A stretch of 64,000 bases of DNA from Escherichia coli. Its GTDB lineage: Bacteria > Pseudomonadota > Gammaproteobacteria > Enterobacterales > Enterobacteriaceae. Each line of letters begins with the position of its first letter. The stretch's first letter is position 1. This document shows, one piece after another, positions 2,990 through 58,745 of the stretch. Below the pieces are notes generated by a model. It ran no database searches and was not told the origin of the DNA. It saw only the letters and a list, made by a program, of their open reading frames with translations. The DNA lies in NCBI RefSeq assembly GCF_003334355.1, contig NZ_QOWP01000008.1; one strand, given 5' to 3'. Both the position numbers and the translations under genes were made by a program.

Positions 2990-3078
2990 TTATCAATAGC
3001 GCATTGCTATTTTCTCTGCACGCAATTAAATTAATTTCCGAACCTGGATGTTCGTTATAAAAACCATTAATAAATGAC

Positions 3079-54440: not shown

Positions 54441-55625
54441 TTAAACGGGCTGCCCCTGATGCGACATCCGCGTCGCCAGCGGCAGCCAGCACAGCACGAT
54501 CAACAATCCCATTAAGGTCATCAACAACCCCAGGCTGCCCTGACCGGTTTGCGGCAACATCGCAGAGAGCGACGCCAGCACGCCGGAACCAATGTTTTGC
54601 AGACCGCCGACCAGCGCGCCAGCCGTGCCCGCCAGGAAGGGGAACGGCTCCATCGCGCCGCTGGTCGCCAGCGGAAACAGCATCCCGGCACCGAAAAAGA
54701 ACAGCGCGGCGGGAACGAGCAGCGTCCAGACATTCATCACGCCAAACCAGTCGGGGATCCACATCAGCAAGCCAGCCAGCAGGCAGCAGATAACCGACTG
54801 CCACATTAACGTGGAGAAGCGTTTATTGGGACGTCCGGCAAACCATGCGCCAAAAAACGCTGCCGGAATCGGCAGAATAAACAAAATACTGACCGTCATA
54901 CTGCTCAGCCCTAACACCGCGCCCATCAGCACGCCGGAGCAGGCTTCAAAGGCGGCAATCCCGGCCAGACCGCCAATCAGCATCAGCAAATAACAGTTAA
55001 AACCGCTGTTACCGAAAAGCGTTTTATAACTGGTAAGCAGGCGCGTGCGCGGTGCATCGACCGGACGCGTTTCCGGCATCCAGCGGGCCATACTGAAGGT
55101 CACACCAGCACAAAGAACCAACAAAAAGAGATAACAGGCGCGCCAGTTCCACATCGTATCCAGCAGACCGCCGATTAGCGGTGCGAGCAACGGACTGACG
55201 AGAATCCCCATGTTTAACAGGCTGTTAGCATGGCGCAACTGTGTCCGTTCATATAAATCTCGCGGCAAAGTACGCGCCATTACGCCGCCAACGCCGGTGC
55301 CCATCCCCTGCATCGCGCTGGCGGCAATCAACACCGTCAAACTGGAGGTCGTGACCGCGACCAGCGTTGCCAGCATAAAAATGGACATTCCGACGAGGAT
55401 CACCGGTCGGCGGCCCACGCGGTCGGAAATCGGGCCATAAAACAGCTGTGAGACACCGTAAGTCAGCAGATAAGCGCCCATTACGCTCTGCACCGCCCCT
55501 TCACGGACGTTGAGATCGCGCGCCATATCGGCAATAGCTGGAATATAAATGGTTTGCGCCATCTGACCGACGGCCACGAGTAATACCAACATCAATAACA
55601 AATTGACGTTTCTTTGCCTTTTCAT
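54441..55625 (-). CDS. emrD: MFS multidrug efflux pump EmrD
   Basis: 394 aa from MKRQRNVNLLLMLVLLVAVGQMAQTIYIP. Confidence 0.95.
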   Translation of the reverse strand: MKRQRNVNLLLMLVLLVAVGQMAQTIYIPAIADMARDLNVREGAVQSVMGAYLLTYGVSQLFYGPISDRVGRRPVILVGMSIFMLATLVAVTTSSLTVLIAASAMQGMGTGVGGVMARTLPRDLYERTQLRHANSLLNMGILVSPLLAPLIGGLLDTMWNWRACYLFLLVLCAGVTFSMARWMPETRPVDAPRTRLLTSYKTLFGNSGFNCYLLMLIGGLAGIAAFEACSGVLMGAVLGLSSMTVSILFILPIPAAFFGAWFAGRPNKRFSTLMWQSVICCLLAGLLMWIPDWFGVMNVWTLLVPAALFFFGAGMLFPLATSGAMEPFPFLAGTAGALVGGLQNIGSGVLASLSAMLPQTGQGSLGLLMTLMGLLIVLCWLPLATRMSHQGQPV

Positions 55626-55798
55626 TATCACGGATGCTTTTATAAAAATAATTAGAATAAGTCACTACGCATTCCCATAAATGCGGGAGAGGAATCTATC
55701 ACATTGATGAATGTTAGCCAGATATACGCCAGGAATGGGGAATTGTTTAGCGGCAGAATATGTAAACAAAAGCGGCAATAAATGTTGCCGGGAGAGAT

Positions 55799-55838
55799 GG
55801 TAGGGCGGATAAGATGCGTCAGCATCGCATCCGACACC
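55799..55838. repeat. REP element upstream of emrD
   Basis: ggtagggcggataagatgcgtcagcatcgcatccgacacc. Confidence 0.65.
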
Positions 55839-55860
55839 AACCCGCACGCTAAATATAAAA

Positions 55861-55882
55861 GGGGAGCGGTTTCCCGCTCCCC
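55861..55882 (-). terminator. Intrinsic terminator of the tisAB transcript
   Basis: Perfect hairpin ggggagcgg-tttc-ccgctcccc with a T-rich tract on the minus strand. Confidence 0.85.
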
Positions 55883-55904
55883 TTTGGTGCGACTTGAATC
55901 TGAA

Positions 55905-55994
55905 TTACTTCAGGTATTTCAGAACAGCATCAAGCAGTTGCAGTGCTGCAACAATGAGTTTGAGGATAAGAATGGCGATATCCACCAGGCTCAT
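55905..55994 (-). CDS. tisB: Type I toxin TisB (29-aa membrane peptide), not in the ORF track
   Basis: Minus-strand translation gives MSLVDIAILILKLIVAALQLLDAVLKYLK; start overlaps the tisA stop (ATGA); SD aggag. Confidence 0.93.
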   Translation of the reverse strand: MSLVDIAILILKLIVAALQLLDAVLKYLK

Positions 55995-56104
55995 ACGCGT
56001 CTCCTGTGGTTCAGGAGCACTGCCAGCTGACGTACCTTTCCGCTGCCTGTTGCCAGCTGTTGTGCACGCGGTATCTCAAGGAGAAACGTTGTGCTTGTTG
56101 ACAT
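55991..56104 (-). other. tisA: tisA upstream ORF (37 codons; reported in the literature as not translated)
   Basis: Minus-strand ORF MSTSTTFLLEIPRAQQLATGSGKVRQLAVLLNHRRRV; its 5' end overlaps the IstR-1 target segment. Confidence 0.75.
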
Positions 56105-56228
56105 AACACAGTGTGCTCACGCGGGGTTAAGGCGCTGACGGCACCACCCGTTTCAGCCAGGACTTAGTGCGCCGGGTAACGATGCGGCCCCCGCATAACA
56201 CATTGCGTACAGTGATATTATAGAAGTT

Positions 56229-56248
56229 TACTGTATAAATAAACAGTA
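56229..56248. promoter_or_regulatory. LexA (SOS) box between the divergent tisAB and istR promoters
   Basis: tactgtataaataaacagta, a near-perfect CTGT-N8-ACAG palindrome; minus-strand TATAAT at 56209-56214 for tisAB. Confidence 0.9.
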
Positions 56249-56288
56249 ATATTTGGACAAAACGCAAACTGTGATCGATACTCAACTA

Positions 56289-56430
56289 TGCACTAAATAC
56301 GTCAAAATTCGTGCCGAAATTGCGCGTTCTGCGCGGAACACGTATACTTTCAGTGTTGACATAATACAGTGTGCTTTGCGGTTACCAGCCGCAGGCGACT
56401 GACGAAACCTCGCTCCGGCGGGGTTTTTTG
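56289..56430 (+). ncRNA. istR: IstR antitoxin sRNAs (IstR-2 about 140 nt; IstR-1 about 56355-56430)
   Basis: Plus-strand promoters (TTGGAC...GATACT; then TATACT at 56343-56348); shared terminator cctcgctccggcgggg + T6 (56408-56429); IstR-1 segment complementary to the tisA 5' region. Ends are approximate. Confidence 0.75.
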
Positions 56431-56558
56431 TTATCTGCAATTCAGTACAAAACGTGATCAACCCCTCAATTTTCCCTTGCTGAAAAATTTTCCATTGTCT
56501 CCCCTGTAAAGCTGTGCTTGTATAAATATTGTTAAACACAAAACCAACAAGGTCCCCA

Positions 56559-56657
56559 ATGACTACTTCCATGTTCAACGCAAAACTACTACCAACTGCG
56601 CCATCCGCCGCAGTGGTCGTCGTGCGTGTGGTGGTGGTCGTCGGCAATGCGCCGTAG
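56559..56657 (+). CDS. ivbL: ilvB operon leader peptide IvbL (32 aa), not in the ORF track
   Basis: Translates to MTTSMFNAKLLPTAPSAAVVVVRVVVVVGNAP, a Val/Leu-rich attenuation leader. Confidence 0.93.
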   Translation: MTTSMFNAKLLPTAPSAAVVVVRVVVVVGNAP

Positions 56658-56680
56658 GGACTGGAACAACACACGATTCC

Positions 56681-56715
56681 AAAACCCCGCCGGCGCAAAC
56701 CGGGCGGGGTTTTTC
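56681..56715 (+). terminator. ilvB attenuator terminator
   Basis: ccccgcc...ggcgggg hairpin followed by T5, between ivbL and ilvB. Confidence 0.8.
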
Positions 56716-56762
56716 GTTTAAGCACCTCCCGGAAAGTCGGCCCAGAAGAAAAGGACTGGAGC

Positions 56763-58451
56763 ATGGCAAGTTCGGGCACAACATCGACGCGTAAGCGCTT
56801 TACCGGCGCAGAATTTATCGTTCATTTCCTGGAACAGCAGGGCATTAAGATTGTGACGGGCATTCCGGGCGGTTCTATCCTGCCTGTTTACGATGCCTTA
56901 AGCCAAAGTACGCAAATCCGCCATATTCTGGCTCGCCATGAACAGGGCGCGGGATTTATCGCTCAGGGAATGGCGCGCACCGACGGTAAACCGGCGGTCT
57001 GTATGGCCTGTAGCGGACCGGGTGCGACTAACCTGGTGACCGCCATTGCCGATGCGCGGCTGGACTCCATCCCGCTGATTTGCATCACTGGTCAGGTTCC
57101 CGCCTCGATGATCGGCACCGACGCCTTCCAGGAAGTCGACACCTACGGCATCTCTATCCCCATCACCAAACACAACTATCTGGTCAGACATATCGAAGAA
57201 CTCCCGCAGGTCATGAGCGATGCCTTCCGCATTGCGCAATCAGGCCGCCCAGGCCCGGTGTGGATAGACATTCCTAAGGATGTGCAAACGGCGGTTTTTG
57301 AGATTGAAGCTCAGCCCGCGGTGGCAGAAAAAGCCGCTGCACCCGCCTTTAGCGAAGAAAGCATTCGTGACGCAGCTACAATGATTAACGCTGCCAAACG
57401 CCCGGTGCTTTATCTGGGTGGTGGTGTGATCAATGCGCCTGCGCGGGTGCGTGAACTGGCGGAGAAAGCGCAACTGCCTACCACCATGACTTTAATGGCG
57501 CTGGGCATGCTGCCAAAAGCGCATCCGTTGTCGCTGGGTATGCTGGGGATGCACGGCGTGCGCAGCACTAACTATATCTTGCAGGAGGCGGATTTACTGA
57601 TTGTGCTCGGTGCGCGTTTTGATGACCGGGCGATTGGCAAAACCGAGCAGTTCTGTCCGAATGCCAAAATCATTCATGTCGATATCGACCGTGCAGAGCT
57701 GGGTAAAATCAAGCAGCCGCATGTGGCGATTCAGGCGGATGTTGATGACGTGCTGGCGCAGTTGATCCCGCTGGTGGAAGCGCAACCGCGTGCAGAGTGG
57801 CACCAGTTGGTAGCGGATTTGCAGCGTGAGTTTCCGTGTCCAATCCCGAAAGCGTGCGATCCATTAAGCCATTACGGCCTGATCAACGCCGTTGCCGCCT
57901 GTGTCGATGACAATGCGATTATCACCACCGATGTGGGGCAGCATCAGATGTGGACCGCGCAAGCTTATCCGCTCAATCGCCCACGCCAGTGGCTGACCTC
58001 CGGTGGGCTGGGCACGATGGGTTTTGGCCTGCCTGCGGCGATTGGCGCGGCGCTGGCGAACCCGGATCGCAAAGTGTTGTGTTTCTCCGGCGACGGCAGC
58101 CTGATGATGAATATTCAGGAGATGGCGACCGCCAGTGAAAATCAGCTGGATGTCAAAATCATTCTGATGAACAACGAAGCGCTGGGGCTGGTGCATCAGC
58201 AACAGAGTCTGTTCTACGAGCAAGGCGTTTTTGCCGCCACCTATCCGGGCAAAATCAACTTTATGCAGATTGCCGCCGGATTCGGCCTCGAAACCTGTGA
58301 TTTGAATAACGAAGCCGATCCGCAGGCTGCATTGCAGGAAATCATCAATCGCCCTGGCCCGGCGCTGATCCATGTGCGCATTGATGCCGAAGAAAAAGTT
58401 TACCCGATGGTGCCGCTAGGTGCGGCGAATACTGAAATGGTGGGGGAATAA
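56763..58451 (+). CDS. ilvB: Acetolactate synthase I large subunit IlvB
   Basis: 562 aa; ThDP-binding motif (GDGS...MNN). Confidence 0.97.
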   Translation: MASSGTTSTRKRFTGAEFIVHFLEQQGIKIVTGIPGGSILPVYDALSQSTQIRHILARHEQGAGFIAQGMARTDGKPAVCMACSGPGATNLVTAIADARLDSIPLICITGQVPASMIGTDAFQEVDTYGISIPITKHNYLVRHIEELPQVMSDAFRIAQSGRPGPVWIDIPKDVQTAVFEIEAQPAVAEKAAAPAFSEESIRDAATMINAAKRPVLYLGGGVINAPARVRELAEKAQLPTTMTLMALGMLPKAHPLSLGMLGMHGVRSTNYILQEADLLIVLGARFDDRAIGKTEQFCPNAKIIHVDIDRAELGKIKQPHVAIQADVDDVLAQLIPLVEAQPRAEWHQLVADLQREFPCPIPKACDPLSHYGLINAVAACVDDNAIITTDVGQHQMWTAQAYPLNRPRQWLTSGGLGTMGFGLPAAIGAALANPDRKVLCFSGDGSLMMNIQEMATASENQLDVKIILMNNEALGLVHQQQSLFYEQGVFAATYPGKINFMQIAAGFGLETCDLNNEADPQAALQEIINRPGPALIHVRIDAEEKVYPMVPLGAANTEMVGE

Positions 58452-58454
58452 GCC

Positions 58455-58745
58455 ATGCAAAACACAACTCATGACAACGTAATTCTGGAGCTCACCGTTC
58501 GCAACCATCCGGGCGTAATGACCCACGTTTGTGGCCTTTTTGCCCGCCGCGCTTTTAACGTTGAAGGCATTCTTTGTCTGCCGATTCAGGACAGCGACAA
58601 AAGCCATATCTGGCTACTGGTCAATGACGACCAGCGTCTGGAGCAGATGATAAGCCAAATCGATAAGCTGGAAGATGTCGTGAAAGTGCAGCGTAATCAG
58701 TCCGATCCGACGATGTTTAACAAGATCGCGGTGTTTTTTCAGTAA
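58455..58745 (+). CDS. ilvN: Acetolactate synthase I small (regulatory) subunit IlvN
   Basis: 96 aa, ACT domain. Confidence 0.95.

Follow-up and report, generated by a model that had tools for sequence, protein, structure and literature searches.

The 32-codon reading frame that precedes ilvB in this Escherichia coli sequence is almost certainly the leader of the ivbL-ilvBN transcription attenuator, a switch operated by the translating ribosome. Throughout, "the window" denotes the whole 64,000-nt stretch of contig NZ_QOWP01000008.1 (assembly GCF_003334355.1) that was analyzed. The attenuator itself is already known, and the only departure from the known system here is Leu6Phe, a common allele that affects a codon of the leader not conserved between species. 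The coordinates of the features discussed below are collected in Table 1.

Identity of the leader and its operon

The leader peptide matches the NCBIfam IvbL equivalog model NF007579 along its entire length (residues 1-32 on profile positions 1-32) with a score of 80.1 bits and E = 8.1e-23, the curated cut-off being a whole-protein score of 60 bits. IlvB and IlvN both score above their own NCBIfam equivalog cut-offs. Of 5426 complete E. coli genomes, 5419 carry the RefSeq label "ivbL: ilvB operon leader peptide IvbL" at this site, with ilvB next in line. The ivbL-ilvB region is an E. coli locus whose 351 nt between 56430 and 56780 are 100% identical to strain 720632 and agree with K-12 at 350 of 351 positions (99.7%). 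The neighboring genes are also those of K-12 (yidF, emrD, ysdE, tisB, ivbL, ilvB, ilvN, uhpA, and uhpB); the K-12 attenuator lies in the same gene order as in the window (emrD, tisB/istR, ivbL, ilvB, ilvN, uhpA), and its terminator and antiterminator sequences are identical to those found here.

The original prediction placed a 32-codon ivbL with a run of valine codons at this site, and the sequence bears this out: the frame extends from the ATG at 56559 to a TAG that ends at 56657, and nine of the ten codons from 19 to 28 specify Val, the tenth specifying Arg. That the gene had been missed by the open reading frame track also fits, since the mechanical list starts the frame at a TTG farther upstream (56529-56657), and the resulting 42 amino acids fall below the default cut-off of 60. 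The run quoted in the prediction, AAVVVVRVVVVVG (codons 17-29), is present and contains the Val codons as claimed, but not the Leu codons attributed to it, which lie seven codons upstream. The Shine-Dalgarno sequence of ivbL is conserved as AGG in the leader alignment described below.

The sole difference from K-12 within the 351 nt is T56574 in place of C, which changes codon 6 to TTC and Leu6 to Phe. K-12 ivbL therefore has Leu6 and three Leu codons while the window allele has Phe6 and two, and the total of Val and Leu codons is 11 here versus 12 in K-12 because codon 6 reads TTC (Phe) rather than CTC (Leu). The 60 nt around T56574 are identical in 2045 of the 5419 complete E. coli genomes, among them the type strain ATCC 11775 and ATCC 8739, so Phe6 is a common allele. 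We considered whether it might be a rare or disabling variant and ruled this out on the strength of that count and of the variation of codon 6 between species. This variable position is distinct from the conserved CUA-CUA Leu pair.

Table 1 Features of the ivbL-ilvBN attenuator region in window coordinates.
Feature	Coordinates	Strand	Details
Possible cAMP-CRP site	56441..56462	+	CGTGA-N6-CCTCA; left half AAYGTGATC conserved in 21 Enterobacteriaceae
Promoter-like blocks	56494-56499; 56512-56527	+	ATTGTC; CTGTGYTTGTATAAAT; conserved in 21 Enterobacteriaceae
CA-rich 5' UTR of ivbL	56533-56550	+	AAACACAAAACCAACAAGG; Shine-Dalgarno AAGG at 56549-56552
ivbL leader ORF	56559..56657	+	32 sense codons and TAG (56655-56657); translation MTTSMFNAKLLPTAPSAAVVVVRVVVVVGNAP
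Leu control codons 10-11	56586..56591	+	CUA CUA; CTACTA invariant in 38/38 aligned leaders
Hairpin A:B	56595..56614	+	56595-56600 with 56609-56614; -8.0 kcal/mol; RNAalifold consensus
Val control codons 19-22 and 24-28	56613..56642	+	Arg at codon 23; read from sequence and translation
Region C, candidate protector C:D 5' arm	56621..56629	+	Within Val/Arg codons; pairs with 56647-56654; -10.3 kcal/mol
Region D, protector 3' arm and antiterminator 5' arm	56647..56659	+	Overlaps codons 30-32 and the stop codon
Antiterminator D:E	56648-56659 / 56686-56697	+	-21.6 kcal/mol; from folding of RNA truncated at 56699
Small hairpin in antiterminator loop (predicted)	56662..56681	+	GGAA/UUCC core, 56663-56666 with 56677-56680
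Region E	56685..56697	+	Antiterminator 3' arm 56686-56697; terminator 5' arm 56685-56693
Terminator (attenuator) E:F	56685..56714	+	9-bp bulged stem, 6-nt loop, U5; -17.7 kcal/mol
ilvB, acetolactate synthase I large subunit (regulated gene)	56763..58451	+	NF006016, 1082 bits
ilvN, acetolactate synthase I small subunit	58455..58745	+	NF006036, 185.8 bits

Terminator and antiterminator share one arm

The G+C-rich hairpin with a T5 tract that had been predicted after the leader is present (-17.7 kcal/mol). Its stem is formed by CCCCGCCGG (56685-56693) and CCGGGCGGGG (56700-56709), with G56702 bulged, around the loop CGCAAA, and is followed by TTTTT at 56710-56714; the stability rises to -19.3 kcal/mol once the flanking A-U pairs are counted. 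The T5 tract ends 48 nt before the start of ilvB at 56763. A consensus terminator scan of the region, which reports no bulged stems, missed this hairpin, but folding shows it clearly. Across the 191-nt leader, the minimum free energy (MFE) is -71.8 kcal/mol, compared with -58.4 +/- 4.4 kcal/mol for dinucleotide shuffles (z = -3.06), none of 200 shuffles being as stable.

In the antiterminator, U56648-G56654 pair with C56691-A56697 and G56657-G56659 pair with C56686-C56688, enclosing the small hairpin listed in Table 1. Terminator and antiterminator are mutually exclusive because both use 56686-56693, which are 8 nt of the 5' arm of the terminator. The check proposed with the original prediction, a search of the folds of 56640-56720 for alternative structures, thus returned the helices that an attenuator calls for, the antiterminator at 56648-56659/56686-56697 excluding the terminator. 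This segment folds at -30.6 kcal/mol in the terminator state and at -21.9 kcal/mol in the antiterminator state, the latter with 56700-56709 withheld. When the upstream part of the antiterminator segment was dinucleotide-shuffled 500 times, 493 of the shuffles were less stable than the native segment; by a looser measure, the probability that the E arm pairs upstream, 54 of 500 shuffles reach the same level. Together with the NF007579 match, the RefSeq annotation, and the presence of ilvB and ilvN downstream, these exclusive helices sustain the assignment of an attenuator architecture to ilvBN.

An Rfam cmscan of 55500-57000 with E values up to 1 gave no plus-strand match in the leader (56530-56720), the leader families considered being Leu_leader, His_leader, Thr_leader, Trp_leader, and others. 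It appears, then, that no model in Rfam 15 recognizes this leader. On the minus strand, 56672-56733 gave matches to P6 (E = 0.0013) and STnc310 (E = 0.39). Both lie far below the gathering scores and were rejected as identities; they reflect a generic terminator resemblance of the attenuator hairpin read backwards. With four A residues before the stem and five T residues after it, the hairpin looks bidirectional, and no convergent gene uses it.

Ribosome position and the folding of the nascent leader

We modeled the translating ribosome as a 28-nt footprint placed at each codon of the leader. At equilibrium, the full leader contains the terminator in every ribosome state, with a probability of about 0.8-0.9. 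Full-length equilibrium folding under ribosome masks was rejected as a test of the switch, because the regulatory decision precedes synthesis of the 3' arm of the terminator, and was replaced by folding of RNA truncated at 56699. Since the equilibrium outcome is always the terminator, the modeled switch would have to be kinetic, with the choice made co-transcriptionally.

In the truncated RNA, the antiterminator is the MFE structure when the A site is at any of codons 1-26. At codons 27-28 part of it disappears, and at codons 29-33 it no longer forms, although at codon 32 the arm finds another partner upstream. A ribosome that reaches the stop codon has a footprint covering 56640-56667. The predicted geometry is that of the classical logic, in which a stall at the control codons leads to read-through and completion of the peptide leads to termination. 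When the ribosome stalls at the Leu codons, its footprint extends to about 56598-56601, short of region C. The RNA that lies 3' of this footprint folds into a strong hairpin of 56600-15 with 56623-38 (B:C, -18.5 kcal/mol), which occupies region C and so leaves region D available to the antiterminator.

Untranslated RNA truncated anywhere between 56694 and 56706 also has the antiterminator as its MFE structure, and the terminator wins only at full length; since this is so, termination in the absence of translation would, in these models, have to rest on kinetic trapping. There are two candidates for the protector helix. One is the C:D helix from RNAalifold (-10.3 kcal/mol). The other, from the single-sequence MFE, combines a CGGC/GCCG pairing of 56642-45 with 56651-54 and a pairing of the ribosome-binding region 56551-56 with 56657-62. 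The folding path of the untranslated E. coli leader likewise has the leader start region paired with the Val codons. The 56551-56/56657-62 pairing is kept at about 80-81% across species and its shuffle controls are weak. Both candidates stand, and we did not adopt the pairing of the ribosome-binding region as the protector.

Conservation across the Enterobacterales

Related leaders were retrieved by one scan of GTDB species genomes for the codon pattern VVVVRVVVVV, which matched at least 120 loci. Among the 120 matches listed, 36 have an IlvB ortholog (64-98% identity) directly downstream; these come from other Enterobacterales, including Escherichia, Citrobacter, Enterobacter, Klebsiella, Kluyvera, Leclercia, Kosakonia, Cedecea, Serratia, Yersinia, Dickeya, Pectobacterium, Brenneria, and Morganella. 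The other 84 of the 120 listed have no IlvB start directly downstream in the sequence available, and most belong to unrelated genomes, the majority of them rich in G+C. Retrieval by this pattern biases the comparison set, leaders with other Val runs being missing from it, and the first two positions of the pattern codons are fixed by construction; CTACTA and the switch arms lie outside the pattern.

The leader peptides differ in their first half, but all keep LL 7-8 codons before the Val run, and all those listed end in G-(N/S/I/K)-A-P. Mean column identity in the alignment is 58%. Against this background, GCGCCGTA..GGG is invariant or nearly so in the 38 aligned leaders, AACCCCGCCGGCG (56685-56695) is invariant in 38 of 38, position 56696 is C in 36 of 38 while 56697 varies, and CCG.GCGGGGTTT varies at the bulge position only. 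The third positions of Val codons 21 and 22 (C56621 and G56624) are free in the pattern yet invariant or nearly so, which points to a constraint at the RNA level.

The terminator, the C:D helix, and hairpin A:B all appear in the RNAalifold consensus. In the alignment, 97.9% of cells are paired in the terminator (37 distinct sequences), 97.6% in the C:D helix, 94.6% and 95.5% in the two helices of the antiterminator, 99-100% in hairpin A:B, and 88.8% in the B:C relay helix; when the partners are slid by 1-3 columns as a control, only 30-55% of cells pair. Hairpin A:B contains a compensatory exchange, the 56597/56612 pair being C-G in 25 sequences, U-A in about 11-12, and broken in one, through synonymous changes in Thr and Ala codons. 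It is possibly a polymerase pause hairpin. The small hairpin in the antiterminator loop shows an A-U to U-A exchange in four sequences and has 69% of cells paired, a value that is lowered partly by gaps in the MAFFT alignment. No compensatory changes occur in this alignment for the terminator and antiterminator, because their arms hardly vary, nor for the B:C relay. Strictly, the invariance of the switch arms neither proves nor disproves pairing. It is nevertheless expected, since these bases pair with two alternative partners and region D also encodes peptide.

Some leaders diverge in detail. In those of Yersinia, Brenneria, Pectobacterium, Dickeya, and Morganella (L016, L020, L059, L081, L084, and L042), GTG occupies the aligned start position, TAA followed by C-GGG takes the place of TAGGG at the stop, and some Val runs are longer. 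The terminator in these five genera lies only 77-85 nt from the IlvB match (110 nt in Morganella), and the core sequences of antiterminator and terminator are unchanged. The leader of Kluyvera genomosp. 1 (L040, about 2990-3050) carries a 57-nt insertion between terminator and ilvB (columns 239-295 of alignment A1), which has hairpin potential and is absent from the other 37 leaders.

The region upstream of the leader

The conserved blocks upstream of ivbL, AAYGTGATC, ATTGTC, and CTGTGYTTGTATAAAT, probably mark a cAMP-dependent ilvB promoter. A consensus promoter scan made no call at 56494-56527. The assignment of 56441-56462 to CRP is possible and draws on the title of Friden et al. 1982, which, as cited in a review, also names cyclic AMP control (PMC6123439).

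Farther upstream, the small RNA istR occupies 56300-56429 on the plus strand (Rfam RF01400, 150 bits, full length) and is the only element in 55500-57000 to pass an Rfam gathering score; its own terminator lies at 56404-56427. The open reading frame of the type I toxin tisB (55905-55994) is on the minus strand, opposite to istR, and its product begins MSLVD where that of K-12 begins MNLVD (Asn2Ser). A small open reading frame at 55704-55781 on the plus strand is annotated in K-12 as ysdE and encodes 24 amino acids from ATG 55707 or 25 from TTG 55704. After tisB, near the emrD intergenic region, the minus-strand segments 55804-55836 and 55858-55885 include a strong 12-bp terminator-like hairpin and a REP-like hairpin whose resemblance to naRNA4 (E = 0.32) is far below threshold.

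Discussion

Attenuation at ivbL would proceed as follows. Transcription putatively starts some 25-30 nt upstream of the ATG at 56559, and the ribosome would translate the 32-codon leader while the polymerase transcribes the next ~60 nt. When Val and Leu are plentiful, a ribosome with its A site at codons 29-31 or at the UAG would cover region D (56647-59), allowing region E (56685-97) to pair with region F (56700-09), so that the hairpin and U5 tract would release the polymerase and ilvBN would be off. When charged Val-tRNA is short, a stall within 56613-56642 would cover region C, which is otherwise the partner of D. Region D, left free, would pair with E once E emerges, forming the antiterminator; F would then be without a partner and the polymerase would read through into ilvBN. 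A shortage of Leu-tRNA would stall the ribosome at CUA CUA, where it would cover arm A (56595-600). For this case we infer a relay like that of the his leader, in which the freed C-rich segment 56600-15 would pair with the Val-codon stretch 56623-38 (B:C) and so release D. Leu may be sensed through this relay, and the Phe6 allele may slightly lower the sensitivity to Leu.

This reading agrees with what has been published on the K-12 system. A fusion of the K-12 ivbL attenuator to gfp is repressed upon feeding of Val and Leu, and is not repressed by six other amino acids that have codons in the leader (PMC11187965); by analogy, the same in vivo response would be expected of the nearly identical sequence studied here. 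A Term-seq study lists a 3' end designated "ivbL_t" (PMC9023263), and the review mentioned above describes ilvBN as attenuated through a 32-amino-acid leader, citing Friden et al. 1982; for such leaders in other Gram-negative species it refers to Vitreschak et al. 2004 (PMC6123439). A further study attributes to Hauser et al. 1985 the pausing of polymerase in the ilvB attenuator (PMC11347164). The ilvGMEDA and leu leaders are summarized in the same review (PMC6123439), and the Corynebacterium ilvBNC leader, or ilvB-II uORF, also places a leader peptide upstream of ilvB within a three-hairpin attenuator model (PMC11857589, PMC10272879); that system is unrelated to ivbL in sequence and lineage, and its operon includes ilvC.

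The trp operon leader, trpL, is the textbook 1:2/2:3/3:4 attenuator. The ivbL leader resembles it in having a peptide with control codons, in its logic of protector, antiterminator, and terminator, and in the coverage of the 5' arm of the antiterminator by a ribosome at the stop codon. It differs in being multivalent, with nine Val and two Leu control codons here versus two Trp codons in trpL, and in that one arm of the candidate protector is supplied by the Val codons themselves. Like hisL, leuL, and ilvL, the ivbL leader has extended runs of control codons, and its rare CUA Leu codons recall leuL. A chain of the hisL kind (A:B, C:D, and E:F versus B:C and D:E) is possible for ivbL. The K-12 ivbL-ilvBN attenuator was reportedly described by Friden, Newman and Freundlich in 1982 (PNAS 79:6156) and by Hauser et al. 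in 1985 (JBC 260:1765).

Other explanations account less well for these features. Short open reading frames and G+C-rich hairpins are common, and the hairpin gave weak terminator-like Rfam matches on the minus strand, so that the two elements could be thought a chance association, for example the upstream istR terminator next to a random short frame. But istR already stops at a terminator of its own (56404-56427), 36 other species among the matches listed keep the leader frame, the Leu codons, and the hairpins ahead of ilvB, and the peptide passes a curated equivalog model; we regard this account as already refuted and hardly worth crediting. Were the small frame instead to control translation of ilvB, as a uORF or by coupling, with the hairpin merely stabilizing or processing the RNA, weak termination out of context might be cited in its favor, but that is what is expected of an attenuator. 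The leader stop codon lies 105 nt from the ATG of ilvB, a gene served by a conserved AAGGA ribosome-binding site of its own, and the hairpin is a complete intrinsic terminator in form, with a U5 tract, and is mutually exclusive with a conserved antiterminator. Translational control of this kind is thus very improbable.

A different proposal, which supplements the attenuator and does not compete with it, concerns the small RNA GcvB: the terminated leader RNA of ~180 nt, being abundant, might sequester GcvB by means of the CA-rich 5' UTR, or GcvB might pair close to the AUG and tune the loading of ribosomes on ivbL, and with it the set-point of attenuation. The 5' UTR at 56533-56550 is CA-rich, the kind of sequence with which GcvB pairs, and the ribosome-binding region and start codon of the untranslated leader are predicted to be paired, with 80-88% conservation. 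Moreover, a published study includes ivbL among the targets of GcvB, predicts a binding site adjoining the AUG, and places RNase E sites between ivbL and ilvB, although its authors themselves call the mechanism unproven (PMC11347164). We consider this additional layer improbable. That the set-point of the attenuator is itself under small-RNA control, through GcvB at the CA-rich 5' UTR, we judge unlikely on the modeled structures, if somewhat less so. If it were true, GcvB would open the structure around the start codon (paired with the Val stretch and 56657-62) and set ribosome loading, and thereby the frequency with which Val and Leu are sensed.

The preferred reading remains that of a ribosome-mediated attenuator of ilvBN. 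Known since 1982, ivbL already serves as a Val/Leu biosensor in metabolic engineering (PMC11187965). Our check shows that a leader-peptide attenuator can be recognized from raw sequence, and it supplies window coordinates for the helices of the switch. It also shows that hardly any change has occurred across the Enterobacterales in the cores of the switch arms or in the rare CUA-CUA Leu codons.
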